Source: Yuukianura sp. NJ FZ-2021 (lineage: Eukaryota). From it: a stretch of 64,000 nt of DNA. Where the stretch lies: contig CM102285.1 of the NCBI GenBank assembly GCA_046563655.1, positions 2,418,001-2,482,000 on the forward strand, read 5' to 3'. Below are positions 1,180-60,612 of this stretch, piece by piece (position 1 is the stretch's first letter; each line of letters begins with the position of its first letter). The notes under the pieces are model-generated. The model saw only the letters and a program-made list of their open reading frames with translations, ran no database searches and had not been told where the DNA came from. Made by a program: the position numbers and the translations under genes.

Positions 1180-1840
1180 CTACTTATTTTTGAAAAGTCT
1201 TGCAAAATCAGAGACTGCTCTCAACAAGGCAAACTGCATCAATAATGTCGGTAGCGTGATAGAATTCACCCTGTCGACGTTTCCCTTCACAGTCAACACA
1301 CACCCATGCATTTGCAGAAGAGTCTTGGGTGCTAACACGACCCGCGTTTCTTTGGACTTCTTTTCCTTTGACCCCGTCATTCGCACTTTGTGTCGCTGAC
1401 GACAAACTTCATGTTCGCAAGTGGAATCGAACTTGTTCAGGAGCGCTTCAAAATCGGCATAAACGCAATCCAATCGTTTGAGGTCTTGCTCGCCGTTAAT
1501 TACCGTATAACTAGGATTTTTAAGATGTTTTAAACGTATGCTTAACGGAAAGGGTGTCGCTTTCTTAAACGCTTCACAATCGTGGTTTCTGGCTTCTTCA
1601 GCGGCTTGTAGATGCTAGCGTCAGTTCCATCGAAGAATACAGCGATACAGTGGACGGGATAAAGCGTTTTGGAAATCTTCGGTCTCTAGACGCTAAGAAT
1701 TGCACATTTTCCGACGTACTCACCTTTTGAAATATCCGTAACGTCGTTGGTATCGTATCCAAACTGCTCTTGGGTTACCTTGCTATTACCACAAAAGTCC
1801 AGCGTCAATGTGACTAGTTCTTCCGCTTCCAAATTCGAAA
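1180..1840 (-). pseudogene. Possible N-terminal/exonuclease-region fragment of a Polinton-type pPolB (degenerate)
   Basis: ORF 1180-1473 has CVYADFEALL, resembling the (PF)V(I/V)YADFE(S/A)LL ExoI motif of Polinton pPolBs. The upstream frame is broken by stops. Only one motif supports the call. Confidence 0.4.
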
Positions 1841-2429
1841 CCTAACGATAGGATAAACTGGTATTAAAGCAATATCAGTGTCAAATACGTCCTTTGGAGG
1901 TCTGTAATGAAACATGCCTGAAGGTATTTGTCATGGTAATTTCTTTCTCAGAACTAAGTTTCTATAAAACAGGAAAAATGTATGATTATCAAATTTTCAT
2001 AGAATTGTATAACGTAACTCAACTAACTCACCTTCATGAACGTGATGAAAATAAGAGGGCAGGTTCCCTCTTCCGGCTTTTTTCGAAGTGAATCCACTAA
2101 TTTTGTCGGTACCTTAACAACACCGTGAGCATAGTTGTTGTAAAGTGGAATTTTGCTGCAATAATGACTTTGGATCGCTTGTTGGTCAGAGGTTATTGAG
2201 ATGCTATTTTATTGAAATGCAAAACGGAACTGAATATTAAAACAGAATTTCCTAGCTGAGGAAGAACAAAATTCTAAAGCAGAAATAGTTAGAAGAAGTC
2301 AAGGTTCAAGTTAGATTTAGAATTTTGGTTTTGAGTTTGAGAAAATGAAACAATGAACTTTTTCATAAAAGTTCATGAGCATGTGAGTCATTGTGACTCA
2401 TGGCGTCAAAGTTTCAACTCCAAGTTGCT

Positions 2430-2900
2430 ATTTGGAGTGGGGTCAAGATTGACATTTCAACAATAGTACCTCTCATCGCACTCGGTGGGTAATTCCCTTG
2501 TCCAGTGCAGCCATACAGCAGGGATTGCCGTCTGAGTTCGTAATGTGTCCGGAAGTGGCTTCGCTGATTCAATTCATTCAGCGCGATGTATAGGAGAAAC
2601 ATTTTTCAGCATGAAGTACGAATGTACTTCCTGGAGTCCTCGTGGAGTACGGACGAGACCGTTGACACTATATGTGAGCTCGTTACGGTCAGTGTTTGTA
2701 TTTCTGAAATTTTGAAATAAAATTTTAGCATACTTTTAAGCTAAAGTAAACTAAGCCTAACAATTTAGCAATTTCAAACTTACCTGATTGTTATGAATTT
2801 ATCCACCACTGTCGAGTAATCATCGCGAATCACCCGAGGTACTCCATTAGATTTACCTCTCATGTCGAAGCGTAACACTTCCAGGACCCCACTTCCACGA
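2430..2900 (-). pseudogene. Truncated copy C of the clan-CE protease gene (part of exon 1 and exon 2)
   Basis: Translates to ..LEVLRFDMRGKSNGVPRVIRDDYSTVVDKFITIR^NTNTDRNELTYSVNGLVRTPRGLQEVHSYFMLKN.., nearly colinear with intact copy A (..MEVLLLDMRGKHLGVPREIRADYSAVVDRFITIR^NTTTDRDELINMVNGIVRTQRGLQEVHSYFMLKN). Same first intron position. Frameshifts and stops follow. Confidence 0.8.
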
Positions 2901-2904
2901 CACT

Positions 2905-3480
2905 TTCAGGACAAGAGCCGTTCGGCTTCTTCTGATAAATGTTTATTTCCGGAGAGGTTACACTTGATGGTCGGGAGTTTAAGACTTCCGATTGTGTACA
3001 TTTTAGGTCTCGGACTGTAGACATAGGTAATAACGGCCGCAGCAGCTTTGTCTTTGAATTTTCCGAGGACTTTTTTGTTGAAAGGTTTATCAAACTCTCC
3101 AAATTGCGGATGATCTGCTGGATACTCGCTACAGTTCCTTGTTTTCAAACATGTCCCGATACATATCCTCGATTTGAATGTGATTAATGAATGAATCTGC
3201 AAGGAGGTTGGTTTTTGTAATGAATTTTGCCAAAACTAAAAGTAATTTGTGCTTACCAGTATCGGTATATGTCAGACGACACTTGTCTCCATACTTTGCC
3301 TGTGATGGCGATACATGATGCTCTTGGCCAGCTCGAGTACCGTAACTCCTGTGAAGATTGGGGTGGCTAGTTTCACTTGAAGTTTTTTCATCATAAAGAC
3401 ACAAGTCGTCACGTTTATGGGAATTACGTTTCGAACCGTAGGCTCCTTGTTGTAGTATAGCGCTTTCTCAACCGTTGTGA
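2905..3480 (-). pseudogene. Polinton/adintovirus-type protein-primed DNA polymerase B, C-terminal fragment (copy 1), with an intron at 3197-3256
   Basis: Motifs LATPIFTGVTVLELAKSIMY, KYGDKCRLTYTDT^DSFINHI, SEYPADHP, NKKVLGKFKDK and PRPKMY, with frameshifts. Removing the GT..AG intron 3197-3256 restores YTDTDS. Confidence 0.88.
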
Positions 3481-3789
3481 AATTATACCAGCCTATTTTA
3501 ATTTTAGTGTAAGTGTTACATACTTACACTACTATTTTTTTTTCTTAAATATAATAATTAAAAAGAAAATTGCAATTAAAATTTACCTTTTGTTGTTTAT
3601 GCTAAGTGTATTCCCTCCTTTTTTCAAAAATATAACCTTTGTGCCCAGAGCTGAAAGAAAATGAATATATTTATTTTATTTATAAAATAAAATGAATCTT
3701 CAAATGTACTTAACTTATTTCTTATACTAATGTTAATTGCGTACTGTCTTAACTTAGTTTTAACTGACCTAAAGATTTTTTAGAACGAC

Positions 3790-3980
3790 AAAGAAAATCT
3801 GAGTATTCATTATCCCTCTTTATAAATTGAAATCTCAGAATTCGGGGTATTAGTCTCCCTTTACTACTAAACTAAAATTTTTAATTCAGAGAATTAGTCA
3901 CCCCTTAGTGCTAAGTTCGAATTTGTGAATTCAGGGGATTAGTCTTCCCTTACTTGCTAAATTAGAATTTTTAAATTCAG
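3790..3980. repeat. Degenerate ~44-bp tandem repeat (3-4 units)
   Basis: Recurring AATTCAGGGGATTAGTC(T/A)CCCTTA..CTAAA..AATTT units. Confidence 0.6.
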
Positions 3981-5479
3981 GTAATTACATTCGGTTGTAG
4001 TGAACCTTGCTTCAACCTAACTTGCACACATCTATCCATGTAATCGGCGTATTAGTTACCTGTGTTTTTGCTTTTTAAGTTAGATAAAAATTAAATGTTC
4101 TAAATTAACTTTAAACGTTAAAAATTGTTTTTAGAGGGTCATTGTTTGACAATTATGTTCTCAAGAAATTAATAATGACTTAAGCACGTAAAAACCCAAC
4201 AGTCCCAAATTGTTCAGCACCAAAAGCCGAGTCTCAAAGTCATCTTTGCTTTACATTCTATGGTTGAGTCTACCATTTTGCTAAAAAATTTGACTTGTAA
4301 AAGTTTGTCATGGATAAATTTTCCATTTTTGTTTTGAGTTTATGTATTTGTGAATATATTTATAAATTCCAATATCTTCTTCTGGAAAGTTTCTTTGTCT
4401 ACCTTGTGAGATGAAGCTTCTGTGTCAGCGATGGTGGTTAATTCATCCAGCTCCTTCTTCTGGTATTCCAAGTCACTTTCCTCGTCTCTTAAGAACGCGT
4501 CCAGCAGTTTTTGTCCAATAGCCTCCATTACAGCTCTCCGCCTTGTCAGCCTAAAAGAGAGAAAGGAACAAAAATGAATTGAGCAGTGATTTGGTAACAC
4601 ATGATTTTTCTCTTGATTACTAAACTAGTATATTAATTGATGAAAACTTTGTATATGCGACAACTGTAGTTTCCATCACCTTTGTTTCACTGCATTCGGC
4701 AACATGAAGAAGGGAAACTTCCTAATTGTGTCATCCGAAACGTTTCCAAACGTTGTTACCGAAATTTTTTGATTATCTACAAGTAAAAAAGATTATGCTT
4801 TAAAAACTTGAGAATGCTTGGCTTATGAAACACAAAGGTTCAAATGAAAATCTTGTTTGTACCATTCGGTCCAGTAAATGCTGTCAAGGCAATCCCGATG
4901 CCTACAAGAAGGCCGACGGTGATTGCTACATGAAGTAGAAGATGAGTATCGGTGTACATTTTTTGTGAATTGAGTGGATCTGAACTTCGAGCTCCTTTCT
5001 CGTCAGTGGTTGAGTGTAGAATGTAAGGTTGTGTAGATGTGTTTTCTTCCTTGTATACTTTCACAGCATGATGGACAATGCGCTGGGGTAGACATTCCAA
5101 TAAGTTAATAATAATAAGCTCTTCATCGCTTGAGCAGACGCTACGGCAAGAAGAAAAGTTTAAAAAAATAAAATAAAAGCCTATTTTTAATTGATCTAAT
5201 TTTCTAAACCTTTATGTTGAGCTTCTACTCGATGGCTTCACTCTTACGACTGACCTTAAGCCTTGTGCACTTGAAGTTGAAATTTTGTTCTGAAATTGAT
5301 AATTAGTTAAATCTTGTGCATAAATTTTTTATTGTTATTTTTTAATATAATAAAAATATAATTATAACAAGAGTTGTAAGTATAAAAATTAAAATAATAT
5401 AAAATTTACATAGTATAATAATTTATCAAATATAAAATGTATCAAAATCGGATAATAACAAATACATAAAAATAGAAAA

Positions 5480-6861
5480 AATCATGCCAAAATTTATGCG
5501 TCTGGATCTTTTAACTCTGCATCCATGGCCATGGCCATGGTACAGAGCCATGAGCTACCTAGTGTCCAGAACGTCGTCTTTTTTAAACATACCTTGAACA
5601 TTAGCCTTTTGATGTTCTATAACAAGTCGCGCAGCATGAGCAGCGATTCTTCCACAGTTGCCGTCGGGTCCCATATTCAAGCAGAGCTAGGTCGGTTGTT
5701 CCAGTACAAAATATCAGTACGTCAAAACTTTTTTGCCAGAACTATACTCACCAACCTTCTCATATTCCGAAGCAAGTCCGGCTTGAAGGTGTTGTACATA
5801 TAGGCTTCCCTAAAAAGATAAAAGTTAATTGTTAAAGTGAATACTTATTTGATCATGTATGCTTATTTGTAAAGTAACTTACCAATTAATGATATCAATC
5901 ACCGTCATAAGAAGATGACCCGGAACTCAAACGGGGAGGATGAAAATCTCCGTATCGTTCGGCAGAGCCCAGAATGCAACCTCCATTACTGCAAAGACTT
6001 CCCAAGTCGGCTCCATGAATTGACGTACCCTCAAATCGGTGATGGAGCAGACGAAGCCCTTCTGAATATCTTCTTTTATGTAGTGTGGCGCAACCCTGAA
6101 CGCCAATTCTGGAGAGATGTACTGGATCCTGCTGTTATGATTCTGGAGCATCAACCTCTGTAAAAACAATATATCATAATTAGAAAAAAAAATTCAAAAT
6201 AATTACAACAAATTACACGCATGAAAACCAAAAACACGTTCAGCGGAGTTCCACGTTCCGGCGTATCTCTGAAACTATTAACCGATGTTTCCGCAAGTTT
6301 GAGGAAGCCGTGATCATAATAAGATTCCCGGCATCTCACGTTGTCCAGATACTCATGATCCCATACCAGCCACTCGCCTGGAATTTCGGATTTGGAGAGT
6401 TTCAGATTGGGCAGCGGCTTTTCGTTGGCGGAGTCAATCCAACTTATACGATGCTTTGCCGGCACATTGTTCATCATAAAGTACGAATGCACTTCATGAA
6501 TTCCCCGACGACGTCGCACAAAATCATTGACAAAGAGAAGCTTTTGATTTGTGTTGGATTTTCTGAAAAAAAAGGTTAGGTTAGCCAACTAGGATGTAAT
6601 TGACTTTGTTAATTACTTACCTTTGTTTGATGAATTTTGAAACGACGTCAGTATAGTCGTTTCGGATTTTCCTTGGAATTGACGAAGGTTTTCCTCGGAC
6701 ATCAAAAAACACAACTTCCAGAGTTCCTTCCAGTGCTTGTGAAAATAGTATGGAAGCTGTCGCTCCGCTTGAGGAGATAACCCTACCGATTCACGATACC
6801 TCCTGTTCACATCCGCTAACCTGTACACTTCTTCCATGTAATACTGCTTCCAAGGATCCAA
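5480..6861 (-). pseudogene. Copy B of the clan-CE (Ulp1/adenain-like) protease gene, 4 exons, disrupted
   Basis: Exons colinear with copy A (RGIHEVHSYFMMNN, YYDHGFLKLA, PNDTEIFILPV*VPGHLLMTVIDIINW, PDGNCGRIAAHAARLVIEH). In-frame TGA just before the catalytic His, and a stop plus frameshift in the last exon. Same intron positions as copy A. Confidence 0.82.
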
Positions 6862-7059
6862 TTTGAAAAAAATTCAATACTTGTTTTATTTTTTCCTAAT
6901 CCTAATCCGGAAAAGGTCGAAGGTCACCTTTTCCAAGAATACAAGGTCATTGGCATTTGTCAATTAACTTTAAATGTCGATTAACTAAACTTTTTTTGTT
7001 GTCGACATTTTTGTTGTTGATATGTTTCATCCTTTGAGATTCTCGTTGTTGACATTTTT

Positions 7060-8176
7060 GAGGCCATTTCTTAAGTACAATGCGAGATATGAAAAATTAG
7101 AGCGGTTTGATACACTAGCACTCTACTATTGTGACCATCGTTTGGACGTTTTCGCGCAAGACTTTTTCGTAGTCTTCAAATTTCATCTGACTGCTGTTTT
7201 CGTGATTCCCTTTGCCTTCTTGGTGTATTCGTCCTTGAAGTTACCATGAACCGTTAGGCTTCTTCTGATAAATGTTTTTCCAGAGAAGTCACGCTTGATG
7301 GTTTGGAGTTTGAGACTTCGGATTGTATACACCTTTGGCCGAGGGCAGCGGACAGTATGTATGTAATGGCAGCACCAGCAGCTTCATCTTTGAATTTTCG
7401 CAATATGTGCTTGTTTGTCGGATCGTGAAAGTTTCCGAACAATGGGTGATCTGACGGGTATTCGCTCATATCGTAGCGTTCCTTATGCTGCAGCATGTCT
7501 TCGTAAACGTCATTTGTTTGGATGTGATAGATGAAGGAATCTACAACAAAATATAATTAGCAACTGAAATGCTAAATTTTAAGAGTTAAAAAAAGTACCT
7601 GTATCAGTGTAAATGAGTTTGCACTTGTCGCCATATCGAGCGTGCATCACCACTCTGTGATGCCGATACATAATACTTTTGGCAAAGTCTAAAACGCTAA
7701 CGTCAGTGAATATTAGCTTGTTGAGTGTTACTTGGAGCATGTTCATAATGAAAATGCACGTGGTTTCATTGATTGGAATAACATTCTGGACGGTGGGCTT
7801 CTTGTTGTAGTACAAAACCTTTTCAGTAGTCAGTGACAACTCGAACGTTCTATCGATTCCTGACTTGCTCTGTGGTTTTACAAAAAGCAGAGTTGTTGAG
7901 GAGTTTCCAAAAATCGTTTGCAAAGTCGCTTGTAGCCTACTTCTTCATTTCAATGTTGAAATCGATGAATTCCTTCATCCATGGACGCTGGGTGAAGGAA
8001 ATACCGTGGTGGACCTTTGCCACCTTGACACCCATCGTGCGATACTTTTTCAGCACTTTTTCTTGGTGTAGAATGTAGTTTGTCTTGTTATTCAAATCTG
8101 CAACCAGTTTCTTCACTTTAAAGACTCCTGGTCCTGTTCCAAGATCTTTCAAGGGTTGGTGCTGATGACTGGACAA
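7060..8176 (-). pseudogene. Polinton/adintovirus-type pPolB, polymerase-domain fragment (copy 2), with an intron at 7541-7598
   Basis: Motifs KKLVADLNNKTNYILH, VHHGISFTQRPWMKEFIDFN, FWKLLNNSAFCKTTEQVRNR (motif B), VSVLDFAKSIMY, KLIYTDT^DSFIYHI (motif C), YDMSEYPSDHP, NKHILRKFKDE and KKAKGITK..KFEDYEKVL. Several stops and frameshifts. Confidence 0.92.
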
Positions 8177-8189
8177 CTCATTGTAACTG

Positions 8190-8540
8190 TTCTGGTGACT
8201 AGAGCGAATTTTTAAGAATCTCTTTTACTTGAGCTGTAATCGATTCGGTTGACTCTCCCGCAGAGTGTTGTAGCCCGTGTAGTATGAGATTTCATTTGTT
8301 AAAGTTAATTAGAATATTTTCGATCTCACGGTCGTGACTACTTAAGTGGTGACTGATCTGTTTGTTGGTGGCCTCTACTTCGTTCACTTTGGTTTGGAGT
8401 GCCGTGATACATGTTGTGATTAACTGTATTTGATTCGTAAGCTCAATGTGATTGTGATCCATTCTGTCGCTCAGTTTGTTGATGGCCGCCAGTACCGCAG
8501 CTAGATTTCAGATTTGCTTCTGTCATTTTGGTAACTTTGG
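8190..8540 (-). mobile_element. Decayed non-LTR retrotransposon ORF1-like fragment abutting pPolB copy 2
   Basis: Coiled-coil-like LAAINKLSDRMD..LQTKVNEVEATNKQI..DREIENI followed by NLILHGLQHSAGESTESITAQVKEILKNSL, the pattern of LINE ORF1 coiled-coil/RRM junctions. Contains stops. Confidence 0.45.
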
Positions 8541-9978
8541 TTGATTGCGAAATTTCTAATTCGGATTTCAGTTTCTTTCCTCTTGTGTTGGCTGGTTGGA
8601 TTGAGTTCTGTATTGGTAAGTGGTGATATCTGTAGGTTAGAAAATATTTTGGCAGTATTTCATGGTAACAATACTTGGTTGGTTTTTGACGTATCAGTCA
8701 TAAACTTATCTGTAATTGATAAGTCAGATGGTTCTGCAGAGAGCAAGAACTGACTATGCAAGCAGGCAGCCACTTGTCTCTGATCAGCTGTTGTATCCGG
8801 AGTCACTGATTCTTGTATTTTGGTTACTGTCCAAGTTGACCTAATCCAGTGTCCCTTGTATCCAGAAGTCCTTATATCAACGTCCTGGTCACTCAGTGGT
8901 GGTCCTCAGTCACTGGTGAAGCATACTTTGTGCAATAGACTTCGATGTTGGAGTTGCAATCTTTCAACACATCATTAGCTTTAAGTGGAGCGGTTGCGCC
9001 TTATTTAATTAGTCCACAACACAAAAGGATGGCGCAGAAACTTCTCATTGTCACAAAAATTCAACTGGAGCAGATAACAAAAAACGGTATTGGATTAGAG
9101 TTTTGTTTCTAGTATACAACGAAAGTAATAGAAAAAAGAGGTTGGGCATCAGTAAGATGTGAAGATTTGGATTCTGTTCCTGATGATTCATAACACAACC
9201 TTCTAAACACACTTCGACGAGCGAGGAAATCTCGCTCGTCGATTCCATTTCCGGATTTGAATGTTAAGCTTCAAAGTTCTGCAGTTCGCTTACTGAATGA
9301 TCAGTCGAGAGGAAAAATAGAATCAACTTGGAAAGGAGAAATGAAATTTCCTTCATTTCTACCATTATACAGTAGCGCTCTCTCCTGATGTCGCCTTTCT
9401 GACCGCCTTCATTTTGTTTTCACCAGCAGTACTGTACTATCTTAGCTTGGACCTATCTTACGTTGAAATTTTTTAAAGAAGAAAACCAGCAACCTAAATA
9501 ATGAAGTATATCTTTGATGGAGGAACTCTATAAACATAACTTCGTATTACCACATTTGAGGGGTTACGTTCCGCCAAAAGTTGGCGACAGGGCAAGTACA
9601 TTGTTTACTTTGATCCAGGATTTGTTCAGACATAAAAATGAAATCATCAGAAATGTATTGTTGTTTCGGAGTTGGATAATTTTTACGAACATAAACCACT
9701 GGTTCAAATGACATCCACCAGAATGAGCACGAAATGTTAGTTTGTACTCTGACACATTGGGTTCAGCAGCTATTGACTATTGACGCTATGTTTTTGTTCA
9801 GCTCGACGTACTGACAACGGATTTGCCAACAGGCTTACGCAAGAAGTTTTGCCCAGTCTCAAGTTACCCTCCAGTATGCTGAAGAGTACCAAGTTCCGTT
9901 GTAGCAACAAAAATGTCTTCCGAATTCTGACGTCTGACAAACTGATCTCATAATTGTGGACGTTGTGAAGTGGCATAT

Positions 9979-10247
9979 TCATGCTTCAGCGTCATGAGAT
10001 GCCGTTCCGTGTCGTGTTATCTGCATGCTTGGCAACTCTCTCGAATCACGGCCATTCTCCATGTAAATCTGGAAGAGGTATCCCATGAGTTTCGGCACAT
10101 CTTCAAAGTCAATGGCAGTGGCGCTCCTGTTTTGACGTATATTGATCGCTTTGTCTTCCCCCCGTTTACTAAACCAGCACAATAACAACTTGTCGTTCAC
10201 TGGATGAGGTCTCCTTTGCCGACTGATGGATTTCCTTGAAGCCATTG
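9979..10247 (-). CDS. Small hypothetical protein (basic N-terminus MASRKSISRQRR)
   Basis: Open ORF in a tightly packed minus-strand run; no recognisable domain. Confidence 0.3.
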
Positions 10248-10367
10248 TTGTTTGCTTAGCATAGAGTAAAAGTATCTTTGTTTTTCTCACTTTTTATTAA
10301 TTCAATATGTTATACAAACTGACACCAACAAGTACGATTCCACATTTATAAAATACAATAAAAGTCT

Positions 10368-10676
10368 TCATTCTCTCTTTATTTTTTTCAGAATAAAAAA
10401 TGCGAACCACTTGGTTAGTCTATCATATAGGACCCGTTCTGATGCAATTCCGATTGTGTCTATCTCTCCAATCCATGCGGTTAAAACGTCTGCCACATTT
10501 TTCGCAGCCGAACGTAACAGGTGCCTCCGCATGAAACGTGTTGGAATGACGGTAGTAATTGTAAGGCTTTGAAAATGTTTTAGGGCAATCCGGGCACTAA
10601 ACTCTATTTGTGCCAGGAACGTACAGCCTAATGTGACGTGATGGGTGATGTATGGGGAAAATGGGTTCAGCGACAT
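10368..10676 (-). CDS. Hypothetical 102-aa protein
   Basis: ATG lies 2 nt after the chromodomain gene's stop (TAG TA ATG); followed by an AT-rich stretch. Confidence 0.3.
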   Translation of the reverse strand: MSLNPFSPYITHHVTLGCTFLAQIEFSARIALKHFQSLTITTVIPTRFMRRHLLRSAAKNVADVLTAWIGEIDTIGIASERVLYDRLTKWFAFFILKKIKRE

Positions 10677-10678
10677 TA

Positions 10679-11951
10679 CTAGGATCGTCCTTTTCGTTGC
10701 TTACGGGACGACGACACTTCAACTTTTTTGAAGAATTTATGGGGGGTCAGTGGGCTTGCGATACATAGCTGGAGCTCACCATCAGCGATAAGCGAACCAT
10801 TGGCATCCTCGAGAACATTGTCGTGAGTTGGACTGAAAGCATGAGATGGCGACGGTTCGATGTCTGACGGAAATAGACAACGACGAGGCGAGATGGCAGC
10901 ATCATCCCCAGCAGCATGTTTCTGCTCCCACTCTTCATTTGCAGCTTGAATGTCGTACGGCGCTCCTATATCCAGACGCTTCTCGCATTCGCTAATCAAA
11001 TAGCCAGCATCAACATTTCCGGACAATTCGTATGAGAATCTGTGACAAAAGAAAAATGTATCAACCGACTCAATGAATAGCTGAATATTGTGTAAAACAA
11101 TACCTGTCACCGGAAGAATCATATGACGGCCCAAAATCCACTTCATAGTAAGTATGGCCTAGATGGTCCACCAGAATGTCCCTAATGCCAACTATGTCAT
11201 ACTCCGTCCCACCCACGGTCGTCGTTGTATTCTTCCTTTGAGGTGGCTTATATGGAACCAGGTCGGATGGGCTAGATGGAGGTGACTCTTCTTCGGTGTA
11301 ATCTGGCCGCCCCTGATAGTCCTGTAACATAATAATGACAATTCATGTACTATAAACAAGCAAACAATATTATATGTTCTTTACGCCAGATAGTTGACTT
11401 ACAAACGGATCAAAGAACCGTCGTGGACCACCAACACTAGTACCTGGCCGTGGTTCCGGCTGGACCTACACCAAATACATAAAGTCTAACATTGAACACA
11501 CAATTAAACAACTGACAAATTGATAAAAACATACCACCGCCTGTTGACGCATCCTTGGCCTTCTCTTCACAAACTTTGGCTGCTCACAGTCAAGGACATT
11601 GTACAAAAATTTTTACACAACAATCAAAAAAAAATAGTTGACATCAAACAAAACAAATATAATACTTACAGATGACGACGACCCGCCCAACCTATGACTG
11701 ACTTGTTTTTTGCCACGCACCTGCTCACACGTTTGCGTCACAACTTTTCGACGATCAACACTATCAAACACCTATAATCAATAACAAAAATTACAACCAA
11801 CTGATCAACACTAACTTAGTTAATCTAACAGTAGTAAACATACCTGGTTTGACCACGAACTGTCTGCATTCTCAACTCCACGTGCTACCTCGTCAATTGT
11901 AAGCTCTAGAAGAGTTGCACAGCACGAAGAATCTTTCATAACACGAACCAT
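10679..11951 (-). CDS. Six-exon chromodomain-containing protein (~298 aa)
   Basis: Exons ~11844-11951, 11670-11771, 11535-11579, 11403-11465, 11104-11321 and 10679-11039 join through GT-AG introns into one open frame. The spliced sequence TEYDIVGIRDILVDHLGHTYYEVDFGPSYDSSGDR^FSYELSGNVDAGYLISECEKR fits the chromodomain pattern. Confidence 0.72.
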
Positions 11952-12509
11952 TATTAAATAAAAACTCACACTCACTCTTCACCTCCCACTTTCTTTTTTT
12001 TTAATAGTTAATAACACACACACACACGCTTATACAACACTGTTAGTCTACTCGGCGGCTAACATTGGGTCTAGGTAAGTCCTGCGTGTTGACTTACCTG
12101 AATGCTGGTGGTTCTTTCCTTCTGTCCCCGAAGCCTGTCTGCCACCGAAGTAGCCGATGGCTCTGAGGTGCTACTGTAGACGGAAGCTCGACTGTATACG
12201 ACGGTACTTTGGACGGTAGATCGGAACGGTAAGATGTTGAGACAATAGGAAGGTAAGAACAATAGGAAGGTAATAATAGAATCGGTAACTGGTTAGGTTA
12301 CCGATTCGATTGTATTGTCTAGTGTCTCTCTACCGAGAGACGAAACTCTCTGGTCAGAGAAGGGAATAAAGTTCACGGAACACAATAACTTTGGTTGAGT
12401 AACTACTGTTTATTGTTAGAGTAGTGTGTAAGGTGGGACAACGGGCCCATTTATTTTTAGAACAGTCACGGGGGTTAGTCGGCCGCAATATTGGGGAGGG
12501 GAAAAAACT

Positions 12510-12640
12510 CAAAAGTCCTTGTTTGAACTTGACAATTCCTAGAATTTTCCAACACCCGAGGCCTGACGAATTCCGAGAACTTTTAAACGAAAGTTCTTGT
12601 TTGGACTTGTCAATTCCTTGAACTCTCCAACGCCCGAAGC
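12510..12640. repeat. Two-copy ~80-bp direct repeat upstream of the F-box-like ORF
   Basis: AAAGTCCTTGTTTGAACTTGACAATTCCTAGAATTTTCCAACACCCGA versus AAAGTTCTTGTTTGGACTTGTCAATTCCTTGAACTCTCCAACGCCCGA. Confidence 0.7.
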
Positions 12641-12773
12641 AAAAACAAATACTTTTTTATTTTTGTGTATTACAAAGTTAAAAAGTTGTTCATTTTCAGC
12701 TTCTCTCTTGCCGCGTCAACAACTGAAAAACTTTTTAAAACAGTAATTGCAAAGTAAATTTGTTATTGTCGAA

Positions 12774-13355
12774 ATGGCATATCAATTCGATTTCGATCGA
12801 CTCCCATACCTGTGCCAATTAGAAATATTTTCAAATTTGGACAGGTTCGCTTTGCAACTGGCTAAAGTGTTCCCAGACTCCGTAGCCATACTCAAGCCAA
12901 TGCTTGACAAGATGGGCGCCAAAGTTGCTGAGTATACCCCACATGTTATATGTGTTGGTGAGATGCATATCGTCCATCTTGAATTCAACAAGAAACAAAT
13001 GTTTAGAGTTGTGCTGGCGGGTCTAAAAAGTTTTCCGATTGGACGCGTCCTCACGGTGAAAAACTTTGTGACAGCGATTGCACCACTCAGAACGACAGTC
13101 GAAGTCACGCTATTCAAAAATTGTTCCATCGAAGAGCTACTACACCTCACCGAAAAATTCGACTTTGAGCGCGGGGTTTTTCGGGATGACACTGTAATCA
13201 ACATCACCCCTCATCGCTACAGCTGCAGATACGAGATTTTCGGCTGCAGATTCGAGACGTTTCAAGCTCTTGGAAGTATTATTTTTTTTTTTTTATTTGT
13301 AGAATACTCTCCCTGCGGGCCCGCAGCCCATGGAGAGGGAGTTCGATTCGTTTGA
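12774..13355 (+). CDS. F-box-like protein (3' structure uncertain, possibly disrupted)
   Basis: N-terminus MAYQFDFDRLPYLCQLEIFSNLDRFALQLAKVF resembles the F-box consensus (F..LP.E....IFS.LD..L..L..V). Confidence 0.5.
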   Translation: MAYQFDFDRLPYLCQLEIFSNLDRFALQLAKVFPDSVAILKPMLDKMGAKVAEYTPHVICVGEMHIVHLEFNKKQMFRVVLAGLKSFPIGRVLTVKNFVTAIAPLRTTVEVTLFKNCSIEELLHLTEKFDFERGVFRDDTVINITPHRYSCRYEIFGCRFETFQALGSIIFFFLFVEYSPCGPAAHGEGVRFV

Positions 13356-13469
13356 AATGAAGCTAATAATAAATTTAACGTGTGGGGCTGTACAAACTGA
13401 TAACATATTTGGGAGAATGATTGATTACATAGTAGGGGTTAAGTCGAAAAAATTTAAATTTAATAGAAC

Positions 13470-14030
13470 TTATTTCCGTCTTCTTCGTTCTTTGAATTTT
13501 GCCTTCATTTCGTCAAGTTTCGCTTGTAGAAGGGATTTGTTGAGATGATCCAATGATTCATGATTAAGTTCTCCATAGTGTTCAGCAACTGCTTTTTGGA
13601 AGGCGTCTCGGCCCTGCATTGCTGCTAATTTGAAGGAGTGTAATTTGTTGAGTTCTGCATGACCTCCATTTTGTGCAAGAAGGTCGGGCTGCTTGTGACT
13701 AGAGTTTGTGGCTGGAATTTGCTGATGTTTGGTGGTGAGGGTCTTATGTTTCGTGGGAGCAGAGTTTGGAAGATGAGAATCTGCATGGGAAGCGAAAAAC
13801 GTCTTCGATGACTTTCTTGTTTCTTGTGGAGATGTGGAGTTTTGCTGAATGGCATCTTGATGTAAAATTTCGGATGTTGGAGACTTTGAAAGAGCGCCTG
13901 GGTTGGGGTCAAAGGTTTCATTAAGGGTTTGTGACTGGATGACCTGCTGAGGTTTGTCCACGAGAGAGGTGAAGCTCTTGGAAGTATTGAATACGCCCAA
14001 CATCGCGATGAGAAAAATCAGGAACTCCAT
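13470..14030 (-). CDS. Intronless 186-aa hypothetical protein with a signal-peptide-like N-terminus
   Basis: Hydrophobic start MEFLIFLIAMLGVFNTSKS, S/T/Q/P-rich middle, basic C-terminus. Confidence 0.45.
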   Translation of the reverse strand: MEFLIFLIAMLGVFNTSKSFTSLVDKPQQVIQSQTLNETFDPNPGALSKSPTSEILHQDAIQQNSTSPQETRKSSKTFFASHADSHLPNSAPTKHKTLTTKHQQIPATNSSHKQPDLLAQNGGHAELNKLHSFKLAAMQGRDAFQKAVAEHYGELNHESLDHLNKSLLQAKLDEMKAKFKERRRRK

Positions 14031-14529
14031 CGGCTAACATTGGAATCATCTATTAAATTTGACAAAGAGTTGGAAGAATCTCATCGAAAATACCAATTAA
14101 AAATGCGAAAAGAAAATTGCAACGTTTGCGCGAAGAAAAATTCCAACGATGGATTCGTCGTCGGAAGGAATTGAAACAATCTGCTGCTTTTGTCAAGCTA
14201 AACATATATCGTCGTCGCTTAGCTCTTCAGCGTTTGAGCAAACGTAACTAAATAAAACGACAATAAATTTGTGAAATAATTAAATTATTTATAATGTTGT
14301 AATAAATGTTAAAAGTAAAAAAAATTTTTAAAAGTTTTAAATATAAAGTAAATTGTAATCTTTATAATAAATTAAGATTTTATAAAGTTAAAAAGTTTAA
14401 TAAAATAGTAAAAGTTTAAAAATATAAAGTAAATTGTATTATTTAAAAAACAAAATTTATAAGTTATAAAGATAAAAAAGTTGAATAAAAAAATCAAATC
14501 AAACAAAATAATTTTAAGACTGTTTAACG

Positions 14530-16029
14530 TTAGTTGTCACCCTTACAGATGCGAGCTTTCCTAGCATACTTGATAATAAGGTTATGTGTCTTCCGCACTC
14601 CAGCAAGGTCGATGTTGTTGTGGACATCAGCATTTCCATGTTCAACAACCATTCGCGCAGCATGACAAGCAATTCTGCCGCAGTTGTTGGCCGGTCCCAA
14701 TGATGAGTATAAGATGTTGCGATTAAAGTTGGCGTAGTCCCATCGAATGGAATAATTCATGTTGAATTTGTGGCGGAGAACTCTGTCCAGTTGAATTCTC
14801 ACATTGAAGAGCCTTGCTGGTGCAAATGTGTCATAGAAGTATCCGCACCTAAAATTAAAAAACAGTATAATTAAGCAAATGCTAACCCACAATGAAGTAG
14901 CATAATAAATGAAAACTTACCAATTTTTGATGTCAACAGCTACTAGTAGGATATGTCCTGGAATTTTCACGCTAACCAGCAGGATCTCAGTGTCCGATGG
15001 CACGGCCAAAAACGGCACATCAATAATGCCCAACACGTCCATTGTCGGGCTCATAAACGATGTCGCTCTTAGGTCGTAGTAAGGACAACCCAAAGCCGGC
15101 TGGATATCTTCCGATACGTTCCACTTCACACAACGCCATGCCTGCTCCGTCGGGATGTAGTGAATTTTTTTCCCTGAAGTTCTGACATCTTCCATGAGTT
15201 TCTACACAAAAACAGAACAAATTTATGATTAGTATTTAAAATTTAAAAAATATAAAAAAGTATAATTGTAAAATAAAACTCAACTTACCGTCATGAACGC
15301 GATAAAAACAGTAGGGAAGGTTCCACTAGTCGGTTTTTTCCGAAGTTCGTCTACGTGAGATTTCGCCACCTTAACGACGCCGTGATCGTAGTACTTCTCT
15401 TTGCACTTGAGTGGGAATTCCCTTGCCCAGTACAAATCTGCAGCGGGGATTTCCGTTCGAATTTGTGCAGTGTCCGGAAGTGGTTTGTAGTTGGCTGAAT
15501 CAGTCCAGTCTGCGCGATGTTCCGGAAGGATATTCTTGAGCATGAAGTACGAATGTACTTCCTGGAGTCCGCGCTGTGTACGAACAATTCCGTTGACCAT
15601 ATTGATGAGCTCGTCGCGATCAGTGGTTGTGTTTCTGAAATTTTGAAATAAAGTTAACAAATTGTCGTGTTTAAACTGTTTTTAAAATTTAAATTAACTG
15701 TTTTTAAAATTTAAATTAACTGTTTTTAATTTGTGTAATAAAGTTTTTAATGAATTGCAAGCTTACCTGATTGTTATAAATCTATCGACGACTGCCGAGT
15801 AATCGGCGCGAATCTCCCGAGGAACTCCGAGATGTTTACCTCTCATGTCGAGGAGTAACACTTCCATGATTTCTTCCCAGTGGTCGTAAAAGTACTCTGG
15901 AAGAGGCTGTTCCGCAGCAATAGCGTCGACAAACTTTTGATTTTCACTGGCTTTGCGCATGGGTTCTTTAAGGCGCTGATTCCGAATAAGCGGCGCTGGC
16001 GGTGGAACTAACGATGATGATGATGACAT
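14530..16029 (-). CDS. Intact four-exon clan-CE (Ulp1/SENP/adenain-like) cysteine protease, ~402 aa (copy A)
   Basis: Exons 15767-16029, 15289-15634, 14921-15201 and 14530-14848 splice in frame (1209 nt). Catalytic-type order H-D-C: ILLVSVKIPGHILLVAVDIKNW^CGYFYDTF ... GPANNCGRIACHAA. Confidence 0.75.
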
Positions 16030-16554
16030 TGTTGTTGTTTAGAGTTTAACGTTAATTGAAAATTGAAAATTGCAAAATTGAAATGAAAATTATCAAACTT
16101 TGCTTTACTTAAAAAAGTAAAGCAAAATTTTCAGACTTTTTCCATTTTGTCACTATTTAGTGCTTAAAGTACTGATTTGAACACACATTTGCATGGCGAA
16201 TCCGCTGGTGCAATTTGTTTTCCCATAAACTTAATGCTTTAAAAGTTACAGCCACTTAAAGTCGCGCTTAATTTTAACACTAATTTGAACGTTTTTAGCA
16301 TGTGGCTTATGCTATTCAACATTTATAGGGTCATAAAGGTTGCTCACCGACACAAAATTTGATGGGGAATCGAGCACTGGTTTTAGTTTTCATTTAAAGC
16401 TTCTCTGAAAAAAGTTACAACAGAAAAACCGATTTTTCAGTGACTTTTCAAAATGGATGTTGGAAACATAAATAAATTATAAGAACAACTGACCTATAAA
16501 ACGGCTTCTTAACATTTCATTGACACTTTTTTAACTATTATTAACAATGATTTC

Positions 16555-16790
16555 ATTTTTTAGTGATTTTCAGTGATTTTTCAGTGCTTTTTCAGAGGAA
16601 CTTTTTTAAAGGAAAGTTTTAATAAAATTCGATTTCACATTTTGGAGCTTGTTTATTCTGATTATTTGATTATTTATTAACTAACATTAACTATGATCCC
16701 ATTTTTTAGTGATTTTTCAGTGATTTCTCAGAGGAAATTTTTAATAAAATTCGATTTCACATTTTGGAGCTTGTTTATTCTGATTAATTA
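16555..16790. repeat. Two-copy ~120-140-bp direct duplication with AGTGATTTTTC sub-repeats
   Basis: AATAAAATTCGATTTCACATTTTGGAGCTTGTTTATTCTGATTA occurs at ~16621 and ~16743. Confidence 0.75.
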
Positions 16791-16881
16791 ATTATTTATA
16801 GCTAAATAACTAACATTCACTAAATAACATTATTTTGGAAATTCACAAATGCATTTTACATAAATTCACAGCTTTGAAAAC

Positions 16882-17088
16882 ATGGCGAAAAGATCTGCAT
16901 CTCCCGCTCCGGGTCCATCATCTAAGCGCGGGTGCCACACATGCGAAATCTGCAACGAAAAATTCCCATGCGCAAATCAGCTGCTCATCCACATTCACAT
17001 TCAGCATGAAGAGGACGAGACTGTGAGCGAAGCAACACAACAACTTCCACAGATTCCCAATGGAGACTTCGCCGTGGTATTGTTCTAG
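16882..17088 (+). CDS. Short ORF/exon with one C2H2 zinc finger
   Basis: HTCEICNEKFPCANQLLIHIHIQH matches C-x2-C-x3-F-x5-L-x2-H-x4-H, after a basic NLS-like start. Probably truncated. Confidence 0.5.
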   Translation: MAKRSASPAPGPSSKRGCHTCEICNEKFPCANQLLIHIHIQHEEDETVSEATQQLPQIPNGDFAVVLF

Positions 17089-20000
17089 AGTCGGAGCTCC
17101 GCACACCGGAACTCCGACCCTTCGAGACTCTCAATCTGGGCTTATTGTTCGAAGATCATATTGTTTGTAGACCTAACTATTGTCCTAACCAACTGTAACT
17201 AACTGCTAACTAAATAAGTATAACTACTAATGTAATCTGTCCCTTGAATGCTGAAGACTGGGTACTAACTAACTTACTTAGAATAACTAATTACTAACTA
17301 ACTAACTACTTACTAACTACTAAAGGGTTGACCCTTAGGGTCTGACTCCTTAATTATCACTGACTCTAACAGAGGTGAATTCAAGCTGCTTAAGGGTAAG
17401 ATGACTCACAAGCTCACAAGAGCGTGCGTCATTGACTTGGATAGGTCCACGTGTGTTCACGTGTTAGAACGATGTTACTGCCACGTAGGCTACTGCGTCT
17501 TAGAGTTATGAATCATGCACACCTGCTAAGTTTAGGTCACTGCGACTTACACTACGACTTGACTTATGTCTTACAGTTATGGGTCATGTGTGCAGTACAC
17601 TGTGAGTGAGATGACCCGGTCACAACGCTCACAAACACCAAAATAATTCGAATAAAAAAAACACAACTCACCCAACTCACCCCTCAAAAAAACAAAATTC
17701 AGAAAAAATTCCACCCTTCCCGCCACCTCCCAAACACACCCTAACCCCCTCCCCTCTGAAGAAGGGACGCCACGCCATCCTCTTATCCAAACGAGAACTG
17801 GTGAAGGAACAATAACAACTCAGAACAATAACATCTAATCGATCCAAATTAATCAATAAATCACATCGTCCACTAACTAGAGGAGTCTTCTTGTTCAAAC
17901 TTTCAAACGTCATGACTATTGTACTTTCCCGAGCTACTCTCCCTATCACTTTCTTCTTTACGACAAATGTCGCATTTCCGCCAACCACCGAGCCGAGCCA
18001 AATTTTGTATATTCTATCTCGATATACTCATCCAGCGAAATTACTGGCATAATTCCAGTGTCCGGGAATAGCTAGAAAGAGAAATAATCGTAAATTTTGC
18101 CTTTGACTAACAAAAAATATTGTTGCAACGTACATTTATTATGACAGTATTTGGCGCAATCTACACTATGGTAATGCATCACCGTAAAACTTCATGATTT
18201 CGCACTAGTCTACCGATTGCCATGTTACCACTCACGAAAAGTATAATTGAAAGAGGAAGGGTAATGCTAGTGTAAAGAACCTAGTTTGCAATATGTTTAC
18301 TTTCTTGTCAAATAATCTTCTAAGCCTTCAAAGTTCATTTCATTTTCATTTTCTTAAAACACTTACTAACTTAACTAGTTTAACTGCCCAATAAATGAGG
18401 ACAAGTTTTTCGTTAATTATAGCAAATGATTCTAGAGTTACTAATTAGTTAATTGAAAGCTCAGTAGTTCAATTGGTTTTGAAATAATCTGCAAATTAAA
18501 CAAATGTACAAAAAATTGCACATTTTGTGGAGTTTATGTTTGAAATTTCAACGAGAATTCCGATCGTGTTTTATTTTAGTTACTTGCAATGTAATAATAC
18601 GATGTTGATGAATTGAGCAAGTACATATATTTTAACATAAGATAGGAAATTCTCGAATATGCCAGCATAATATTATTCATGGACACACAATATAAAGATG
18701 CTCACATAGTGATTCGTGAAGCCAACTTTCTTCCAATTAAAAATCAAAAGAGCAACGTAATTAGAACCACAGATTCGTAGTATGGAAACAGCATATAAGA
18801 TGTCAGTTGCGGCTTCTGAAACAAGCGGATGTCAAGGACGTCTCGTCGACTCTATTTTTTAGTACAAATATCGTTTGCTTGATGTAATGTAGCTAATATT
18901 AATCACAATATTTATCATAATATTAATCACAATATACTTAGAAATTCTAAGTTATAATTTAATTAAAACCAATGAGTTGAAAGCATTTTGTAGTTACTTA
19001 TTTCAGCGGATGTTGTTGTGATTTCTCTAAATTATTTTATTCGATTGTTGTTGTTTTTTATTAAATTTTTCTCTAAGAAACGCCGTACTTCATTTCATAC
19101 TGAAAAACAGCTATATTGTTTTGTTTGCGTAGAATTGAATTTTTAATACGTCCTTATATGCAGTTTGCAGTACGGCGTCTTCTTTTTATACAAAACCAAA
19201 AGTGAAAATCAATTTCATTACTATGTACTAATAATTTTTTTAAACATCTGAATATTTTTATTTGAAATAATTTGAAACAAAAAAAAATTAGTTTCTCGGT
19301 TGGTTTTTAAGTTTATAAAAATTTTTTCTAATTTAGAAGAATACTTTTAAGTACAAAAAGTATTTTTTTAAATACAAAAAAAAATTTTTTTCAAAAACTT
19401 TTTTGTCTTTTTGTAAACTTTTTTTTTATTTTAAGGAAAAAATATTTAATTATAAGATAAAAATAATTTATAGTGAAAGTCGTTATTGCCCCTCCATAGT
19501 TGAGGTTGAGCCTGAAAAGAAAAGAGTGTAAGCGTCGTAAAAAAGCGTGGTTGGGTAAAAAATGCCGGGCTTTCCCCCAGGACGGGCTGCGGGCATGATG
19601 GATTTCTGGCTTCCATTTTTATAATGAAAAAGTTGTACAAAATATGGATTTTGCTGAACGCCCGCTAAATCGATCCCGCGCATTTAAATCCACGGATTAA
19701 ATCCGGCTCCGCCTTTTAGGGAGACCCCTCAACTGTCAACTTAGGGAAACAATAAGCAATAGGAATAAAAAAAACACGTGCTCGTTGTTGGACTTCACAT
19801 GTTCCACTCGTCCTCGCACGTCGGGTTTCGGAGAAAGAAGTTTTCGCGAGATTTCGTCACGAATTCGCAATGTAAACATAAAACGTTTTCGCAATGAAGA
19901 TCATATTCAACAGAAACTATTCTGTGACGTCTGACGCTTCTAGTTTATCCAACCCTTCACCTCCACTTCTCCTATCTTATCATCGGTAAGACAAACTACA

Positions 20001-20200: not shown

Positions 20201-28750
<8,550 letters not shown>

Positions 28751-59165: not shown

Positions 59166-59345
59166 AGTCCTGTGACCTCTCGAGAAAGTTTTGAGCCAGA
59201 AGGTTAAGAATTAATCAGCTACATGACACGCCCACTGCTTCCCAAAAACACACATCTTGGGCACAATTCACTGGCATTCAAGTAACTATAAATAAACATG
59301 AAACAGCTGTCTGCAGTTCCTTTGGTGTAAGATTGAGGACAGAAT

Positions 59346-59734
59346 GGTTGGATACTAGGAAAGGGTGCGCAAAGATGAAAATTTTCTAAGTCCCAAAAAT
59401 TTGACCCGGAGTCCCCTGACAACCTCAAAAATGACCTCTACAAAAGTTGTCAAGGGTCACGAGGGGAACATTTTTTGTCCTCTGACATATGACCCTGTGA
59501 CCTTCCGTTGAGGTCGTAGGTCAATTTGAAGGTTTAACCTAACCTAGCTTTCAAATTGACCTATGACCTCAACGGAAGGTCATAGGGTCATATGTCAAAG
59601 GACAAAAAATGATCCCCTCATCAAGCCCAACAACTTTTGTAGAGGTCATTTTTGAGGTTGTCAGGGGACTCCGGGTCAAATTTTTGGGACTTAGAAAATT
59701 TTCATGTTTGCGCACCCTTTGCTAGTATCCAACC
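59346..59734. mobile_element. 389-bp almost fully palindromic MITE with an 8-bp TSD (Merlin/hAT-like)
   Basis: GACAGAAT|GGTTGGATACTAG ... CTAGTATCCAACC|GACAGAAT. Arms of ~185 bp surround a central loop containing TAACCTAACCTA. Confidence 0.9.
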
Positions 59735-60612
59735 GACAGAATACAAGGACGATGAAACTGATAGGAACGATTTACCTACTTAAATTACTCAAATGGTACA
59801 CTTACTCAAAAGAAGCAAATTCACAATCAAGTCGGTGACATAATTAATTTTACGCAAGATGTAAACACACACCCGTAAGCACAAAAAACAGGAAACAGGA
59901 CACACACACCAGGAAGGACAGAATACGTAAACGACGGAGAGAGTTCAGTGTGTGTAGTAAAGTAGGCGATGAGATCGAAGAAGGTTGAAGTTGAATCGAA
60001 TCTTGCAAAAGAAGGATATGGGATTTTTTGGGTTATATTCCAATTCTATTGTTTGTTGTGTATGCAGTGAGAGTGAGATGAGTTAAATTGCGCAAGAACC
60101 GTTACCATGGAACCAGGGTTGTAACTAATCCAATGACTAACGGTACTGTAAAAATCGCATTCCTATTTGAAGCATGTCATACGATCCTTTTTTTCCACTC
60201 GAAGTAGCATCACGTTCACGTACGACTTTTGAAGATCTTCAGTTTTGTTTCGCATTTTCAAACATCCAACCACATTTGATATTTTACCATTTCCAGCTTT
60301 TAGGTTTCAAACTCTCCGTTTCTTTAAAATCTTCAAATTCGTTTGACTTCTACTACAATTTTCAAATTGTTCAAAGGTTTCCGCGAAGGCAAAGGAATCC
60401 CACTCGCATTTATTTTATTGCGGTTTAGCGGATTCCGACGATTGGTGTCACCCCTGTCATTGGTTCACATCATCACATCAATGAGTTTTTGTCAGACTCG
60501 ATTGTTTTTGTTTTCAAAATCAAATTATTAATCGAAAGGAGTTTTATTACTATATTGTTATAACGTTAATTACTTGATTTTGATTACTGACATATTTATC
60601 GTAAGGCAAATC

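Follow-up and report, generated by a model that had tools for sequence, protein, structure and literature searches.

Two decayed pPolB genes with a shared intron in motif C, and the four-exon protease-like gene beside them, in a 64-kb stretch of the Yuukianura sp. genome

The core genes of Polintons and Mavericks are reported to be intronless (Widen et al., bioRxiv 10.1101/2022.07.12.499685; Barreat & Katzourakis, PMC8097293, citing Kapitonov & Jurka), intact vertebrate Mavericks included (Barreat & Katzourakis 2021, PMC8097293), and the intronless state is read as a mark of a viral way of life. Here we describe a locus that departs from this usual state. It lies in a stretch of 64,000 nucleotides from Yuukianura sp. 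NJ FZ-2021 (GenBank assembly GCA_046563655.1, contig CM102285.1, positions 2,418,001 to 2,482,000), which we call the window and number from its first letter. Two decayed genes for pPolB, the protein-primed family B DNA polymerase of Polintons and Mavericks, each carry an intron inside catalytic motif C, and each is followed by a copy of one four-exon gene with a protease-like motif. We refer to these two polymerase-plus-gene pairs as units A and B, to the gene that follows the polymerase as the linked gene, and to a third, solitary copy of that gene as copy C.

How does the locus compare with the closest described systems? Nematode Mavericks carry intron-bearing cargo beside their intronless core genes, and most of their copies have decayed; the cargo includes wosp/wasp HtrA-like serine proteases and krma kinases that bear a ubiquitin-like domain at the N-terminus, and the wosp and krma families have near-identical copies in distant species (Widen et al.). 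Our locus resembles these elements in being pPolB-bearing and mostly pseudogenised, in having a linked intron-containing non-core gene, and in that some copies appear to survive as host genes. In contrast to them, the polymerase itself bears an intron, no terminal inverted repeat (TIR) or integrase defines an element, the linked gene, with its cysteine-protease-like motif, is found immediately downstream of pPolB, and the sole outside homologue of that gene is 33% identical. Nematode Polintons encode PRO, ATPase, capsids, a fusogen and integrase and have two pPolB classes, and the paper describing them leaves spliceosomal introns unmentioned (Jeong et al., PMC10748475). In Caenorhabditis elegans, Polinton remnants of the pPolB end are clustered at loci (Zhang et al., bioRxiv 10.1101/2024.01.15.575659). 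Likewise, the partial elements described here consist of the polymerase end only and are clustered at one locus; the C. elegans remnants, however, are of recent age, and their TIRs and their identity as Polinton-1_CB can be recognised, whereas here synonymous sites are saturated, there are no TIRs, and the pPolB is of a type for which one database relative was found. Finally, introners occur within dinoflagellate eupolintoviral proviruses (Gozashti et al., PMC12166617), which are also Polinton-like and also have spliceosomal-type introns inside. The dinoflagellate introns derive from introners that transpose in protists, whereas ours is one short intron at a conserved pPolB catalytic-motif site in a genome of animal type, where no repeat family is evident. 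A literature search with limited coverage of subscription journals brought up neither an intron in any core gene of a nematode Polinton nor a cysteine-protease cargo. Decayed remnants with a linked intron-bearing gene are a variant of the known picture; what is unusual is the conserved catalytic-motif intron in a polymerase under purifying selection, together with an orphan partner that resembles a cysteine protease.

The polymerase remnants were recognised through a 336-aa protein, P0002, from a 1331-nt metagenome contig, the only match among 119 candidates (E 1e-25, 68% identity). P0002 has the motifs KLLNNSAYGK and YTDTDS, and its residues 10-287 match the PHROG family phrog_1907, 'DNA polymerase' (E 3.7e-9); Atlas, a language-model search, gave two leads, one at 0.93 to a cluster labelled Preplasmiviricota and one at 0.88 to a DNA_pol_B_2 cluster. 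In tblastn, P0002 matches remnant B over positions 8023-7189 (joint E 2.7e-53), the segment 8023-7832 being 75% identical and 7830-7189 extending the match, and remnant A over 3478-2963 (E 2e-42 to 2.8e-44), and the two pPolB fragments announced in the earlier note are thus found again as paralogous minus-strand remnants. Remnant B spans P0002 residues 1-273, its reading broken by 2 stop codons in frame and by 3 or more frameshifts, and weak traces of the polymerase C-terminus continue beyond it to ~7040. The pPolB identity of the remnants in the window is transitive, passing through P0002, and protein priming of the polymerase is predicted. P0002 itself gave a structure prediction of low confidence (pLDDT, the score of the predicted local distance difference test, 36.9), and scans of IMG/VR with P0002 and with an alignment of ours gave no match. 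A possible third pPolB fragment had been suggested at the start of the region. The open reading frame (ORF) in question, at 1183-1614, may be an N-terminal pPolB fragment on the strength of its ExoI-like YADFE motif; it matches nothing in Pfam or PHROG and has no homologue among 340 candidates.

In both remnants motif C is interrupted after YTDT by an intron at an identical site and in an identical phase. Its removal restores YTDTDSF in A and in B with zero residues gained or lost relative to P0002, and the spliced readings of A (KCRLTYTDTDSFINHIQIE) and B (KCKLIYTDTDSFIYHIQTN) are colinear with the uninterrupted P0002 (..YTDTDSFIYHIKTD..). The two intron sequences are themselves identical at just 34 of 63 aligned columns. 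A plain frameshift after YTDT was considered and replaced by the intron reading on account of the GT..AG ends and the one site and phase in both copies; the earlier suggestion that a pPolB gene had gained a spliceosomal intron is thereby borne out. The shared intron is older than the split between A and B and was borne by working genes.

This is seen from the pattern of divergence. Over 128 in-frame codons the two polymerases are identical at 91 of 128 residues, the proportion of differing sites being 0.90 for synonymous sites (pS) and 0.16 for nonsynonymous sites (pN); with synonymous sites saturated, the resulting pN/pS of 0.18 is an upper guide only. When 19 further codons are added, giving the 147 codons of in-frame alignable stretch among ~159 that overlap, differences at codon positions 1, 2 and 3 number 32, 21 and 92, respectively (chi-square p 7.6e-14), and the remnants show 71% amino-acid identity at ~65% nucleotide identity. 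The excess of third-position differences shows that A and B diverged as working genes and not as dead DNA, and that they were under purifying selection during most of the time since their split, in keeping with the earlier reading of diverged copies. The intron-bearing polymerase was therefore a functional gene whose expression passed through host splicing, and the polymerase and its partner were inherited as a unit. Similarly, copies C and B of the linked gene have a pN/pS of 0.40-0.42 at a saturated pS of 0.87-0.92, copies A and B have a pS of 0.78, and copies A and C have a pS of 0.24-0.48 and a pN/pS of 0.43-0.62. Because the A-C synonymous divergence is lower than that of either other pair, the branching order of the copies is ((A,C),B), and the polymerase and linked gene of units A and B have diverged to a matching depth.

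The linked gene was recovered by self-comparison of the window as three minus-strand copies (C against A exon 2, E 2.8e-35; C against B, E 2.1e-32). Copy C has exons at 16029-15767, 15634-15289, 15201-14921 and 14848-14533, followed by a stop codon; its three introns are all GT-AG, and the spliced frame runs uninterrupted for 402 codons. Copy A is the most reduced: a ~500-bp deletion fuses polymerase remnant A to the linked gene halfway along exon 1, a ~330-nt insertion splits exon 2, which also carries a stop, and nothing is recognisable beyond the start of exon 3. In the arrangement shared by the units, the linked gene follows pPolB on the same strand at ~100-300 nt; units A and B, which lie on one strand 4.3 kb apart, are alike in order and orientation, and their DNA similarity is limited to the polymerase and the linked gene. 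In unit B the polymerase reading carries on into the C-terminal region a short way ahead of copy B's ATG, and this boundary looks like a natural gene-to-gene junction. An origin of exon 1 and early exon 2 from the pPolB C-terminus was rejected on two counts, the best blastp E of 1.0 between P0002 and the spliced product and the separate presence of a polymerase C-terminal stretch beside copy B. Searches with P0002 found no polymerase trace beside copy C. The earlier note had listed three copies of one spliced protease gene, of which the three spliced copies stand, with only C intact and the protease label at the level of a motif; it had also described some of the cargo as intact and the polymerases as decayed, which fits copy C and both polymerases. 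Its linkage of a protease-like gene to pPolB holds for units A and B, where the two have diverged in step. Two tandem arrays were seen nearby, one of 3.3 copies of a 44-nt unit between units A and B (3839-3987) and one of units of ~122-146 nt upstream of copy C (16520-16800).

Outside the window the linked gene has few relatives. An exhaustive search of 1.84 billion representatives returned a single match, P0003 (E 7.1e-5), whose 1420-nt metagenome contig, L001, encodes a colinear homologue (23-33% identity, joint E 2e-12) and bears no polymerase trace in similarity searches with P0002. No further homologue was found for exon 2 among 94 candidate longer proteins, nor in a metagenome scan with an exon-2 alignment. 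All three intron positions of the linked gene are kept in the L001 homologue, and the gene therefore belongs to an old intron-bearing eukaryotic family and is not a recently captured intronless viral ORF. At L001 1218-1300, a GTAAGT donor opens the intron that follows the exon with the His, and no obvious AG acceptor was seen ahead of the reading that bears the YDS motif; L001 may be a pseudogene or may use an unusual acceptor.

What kind of protein does the linked gene encode? In clan CE cysteine proteases such as Ulp1 and adenain, the catalytic residues follow the order His, Asp or Glu, Cys at spacings of ~17 and ~50 residues, and an oxyanion-hole Gln lies a few residues before the catalytic Cys. 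The 402-aa product of copy C has a candidate triad of H286, D303 and C353 in its C-terminal half, with the spacing His-17-Asp-50-Cys; the His and the YDS motif are conserved in the L001 homologue, and copy B has Asn at the position of the candidate catalytic Asp. For exon 4, Atlas pointed to Peptidase_C48 and ElaD/SseL-like clusters (0.86) at a recognition value of 1789, which is below the guide of 2300 and makes this a lead only. No Pfam or NCBIfam family matched the product at E<=10, Peptidase_C48, C5 and C57 included, and neither phmmer nor a profile search found a clan CE chain in the PDB at E<=10. Gln is absent from the 8 residues preceding C353, and an AlphaFold2 model of the protease-like domain has a mean pLDDT of 39.6. 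The product is thus like adenain (C5) and Ulp1/SENP (C48) in the order and spacing of its candidate His, Asp and Cys and in a C-terminal domain of ~200-230 aa, and unlike them in lacking a profile match and the oxyanion Gln and in having an extra N-terminal ~175-200 aa; the likeness is one of motif. The label 'clan-CE protease', which the earlier note had given, is backed by the spacing motif and a weak language-model lead and not by hidden Markov model (HMM) or PDB matches. On balance we lean slightly towards clan CE and, if the triad is real, the protein is probably a cysteine protease of deubiquitinase/deSUMOylase or of viral-maturation type.

We propose, with about even confidence, that an element lineage with an intron-bearing pPolB, and with a protease-like gene inherited alongside it, has left at this locus the remnants of two diverged copies, together with one retained intact copy of that gene. 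Units A and B would be anciently diverged copies of a single Polinton/Maverick-like lineage whose polymerase gene carries a spliceosomal intron within motif C and has close behind it, in the same orientation, a gene of four exons that encodes a protein of ~400 aa with a clan-CE-like His/Asp/Cys arrangement in its C-terminal half. The pair was inherited as a unit, and both units are by now dead and truncated. Copy C, closest to A, without an adjoining polymerase and intact, may have been kept by selection as a host-resident gene, either domesticated or still element-derived. A more far-reaching version is tentative, and we rate it clearly below the proposal itself: a 'nuclearised' Polinton-like lineage of nematode-type hosts, with a functional intron-bearing polymerase dependent on host splicing and a four-exon clan-CE-type protease, either an enlarged PRO or new cargo, of which one copy was domesticated. 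A polymerase that stayed functional with an intron in its catalytic motif would mean that certain lineages use the expression route of ordinary nuclear genes, which bears on the persistence and silencing of such elements and on the domestication of their genes. If the linked gene does encode a protease, it would bring to three the kinds of gene that travel with nematode pPolB elements.

Several observations weigh against this proposal. The Polinton/Maverick hallmark pPolB is present as remnants only, identified via P0002, phrog_1907 and motifs B and C, and no Pfam or PHROG polymerase model matched the window's own polymerase pieces directly. Among the 119 + 94 ORFs of the window, Pfam found no integrase (rve), ATPase, capsid, adenain or DNA_pol_B_2, in a scan that could miss decayed or intron-split integrase copies and that is a weak detector of double and single jelly-roll capsids and of packaging ATPases. 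Similarly, there are no inverted pairs of at least 40 nt in 1-21 kb; the inverted matches that were seen are AT-rich only, at most 36 nt long and of 70-85% complementarity. P0002 may derive from assembled transcripts; if it does, the missing intron tells nothing about the DNA. With two units only, the linkage of pPolB to the linked gene is one ancestral arrangement observed twice. Finally, the codon analysis covers the alignable stretches and its synonymous sites are saturated, as noted above, and a tandem host-gene pair maintained over a long time would give an identical signature of selection. The region had earlier been interpreted as an array of Polinton/adintovirus-like elements with host-manipulation cargo. 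'Array of elements' is overstated, no further core gene and no TIR having been found; nothing beyond pPolB speaks for Polinton/adintovirus membership, integrase, ATPase, capsid and TIR all having gone unfound; and 'host-manipulation cargo' is speculation. The chromodomain and F-box labels fail in Pfam and PDB, and the protease assignment is at the level of a motif. What the earlier note observed is partly confirmed, and its interpretation is partly supported.

The main rival of an element origin is a host two-gene module, in which a pPolB-derived gene, domesticated in the distant past, gained an intron as any host gene may and lay beside a host protease-like gene, the pair was duplicated in tandem, both pairs were functional over a long period, and later decay left copy C. 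Its signatures of selection would be the same as those of an element lineage, and it agrees with the placement of the units on one strand at close range, with the failure to find a TIR, integrase or capsid in the window, and with the conservation of the linked gene's intron positions in the distant L001 homologue. It asks, however, for two redundant domesticated polymerases, both persisting under strong constraint (pN/pS 0.18) and both then dying, and this is a less parsimonious account than divergence inside a lineage of active elements. In addition, the nearest relative of the polymerase, 68-75% identical, is on a separate metagenome contig, which fits a mobile or widespread lineage, although it may still be an orthologue. 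We consider the host module rather unlikely.

No better placed, in our estimate, is the explanation that the linked gene is the element's own adenain-type PRO, enlarged N-terminally and invaded by introns, with copy C a domesticated viral protease. PRO is a core gene of nematode Polintons (Jeong et al.), and the tight, old linkage of the gene to pPolB, the spacing of the candidate triad and the exon-4 lead all point in this direction. Against it stand the absence of any HMM or PDB sequence match, the Atlas recognition value short of its guide, the missing Gln before the Cys, the low-scoring fold model, a protein about twice (~2x) the usual size of PRO, and the old intron-rich gene structure that the L001 homologue indicates. 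Finally, duplication in place of a composite of one dead pPolB fragment and a neighbouring host gene would account for the like order and orientation in A and B and for DNA similarity restricted to the two genes, but it predicts equal change at all codon positions and is rejected as highly improbable by the codon-position test and by an amino-acid identity above the nucleotide identity.

Table 1. Features of the locus and its neighbourhood (positions in the window).
Feature	Position	Strand	Basis or remark
ORF with ExoI-like motif (..VYADFEAL..), candidate N-terminal pPolB fragment	1183..1614	-	motif only
Linked gene, copy A, degenerate pseudogene	1957..2890	-	half of exon 1, broken exon 2, exon 3 start
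pPolB remnant A, pseudogene (frameshifts, small deletion)	2912..3523	-	tblastn with P0002, residues ~62-225
60-nt GT..AG intron in motif C of pPolB A	3197..3256	-	splicing in silico gives KCRLTYTDTDSFINHIQIE
Linked gene, copy B, pseudogene	5516..6836	-	exon 3 with an in-frame stop, exons 1 and 4 frameshifted
pPolB remnant B, C-terminal half with motifs B (KLLNNSAF..) and C, pseudogene	~7125..8160	-	tblastn with P0002, direct reading
58-nt GT..AG intron (phase 1) interrupting motif C of pPolB B	7541..7598	-	splicing in silico gives KCKLIYTDTDSFIYHIQTN
Multi-exon gene, chromo-like first part and C2H2 finger exon (10426-10596)	10426..11342	-	Pfam supports finger alone
202-aa ORF, F-box-like N-terminal motif	12747..13352	+	label without Pfam/PDB support
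187-aa ORF, hydrophobic N-terminus, low-complexity Ser/Thr/Gln/Pro-rich body	13473-14033	-	without Pfam match
Linked gene, copy C, intact four-exon gene	14530..16029	-	402-aa product

The setting of the locus is that of a eukaryotic chromosome. Introns in the window are of eukaryotic style, ~50-130 nt long with GTAAG donors and TTTCAG or TTTTAG acceptors, a style that we take to be nematode-like. Rfam and tRNA scans of the window gave no match. From ~20.4 kb onward, Pfam recognises host families among the 94 ORFs of 20.2-64 kb (an ABC transporter with TMD0, BTB/BACK, PCI and C2H2), in agreement with the ordinary host genes that the earlier note had seen to follow. Within 1-20.2 kb, the sole significant Pfam match of 119 ORFs is one C2H2 finger (zf-C2H2, E 4e-8, score 33.7 bits where the cut-off is 25.2), which likewise upholds the C2H2 ORF of the earlier note. 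Its proposed chromodomain and F-box genes fared less well: the chromo profile of Pfam and the PDB gave no match to the former, a candidate that is intron-split and of which each exon was searched alone, and the 202-aa ORF matched neither the Pfam F-box profile nor the PDB. Nothing seen in the window connects the polymerase units with the chromo-like/C2H2 gene or with the ORF that has the F-box-like motif, and these genes, together with the secreted low-complexity ORF, are ordinary fast-evolving neighbours.

Further observations concern these neighbours and the region beyond. Within 10426-10700 on the minus strand, the finger exon reads CPDCPKTF..H followed by a second, C2HC-like finger, and no in-frame join through GT-AG sites to the chromo-like exons upstream was found. 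The 187-aa ORF resembles a secreted orphan protein. Just downstream of the first ABC-transporter exons lies a near-perfect inverted duplication (22131-22580 and 22941-23404; 97-100% at the protein level over 28-76 residues), for which a repeat that forms a hairpin, a foldback element and an artefact of the assembly are all candidates. A second inverted pair, within 59345-59780, joins 59359-59508 with 59721-59572 at ~86% protein-level identity.

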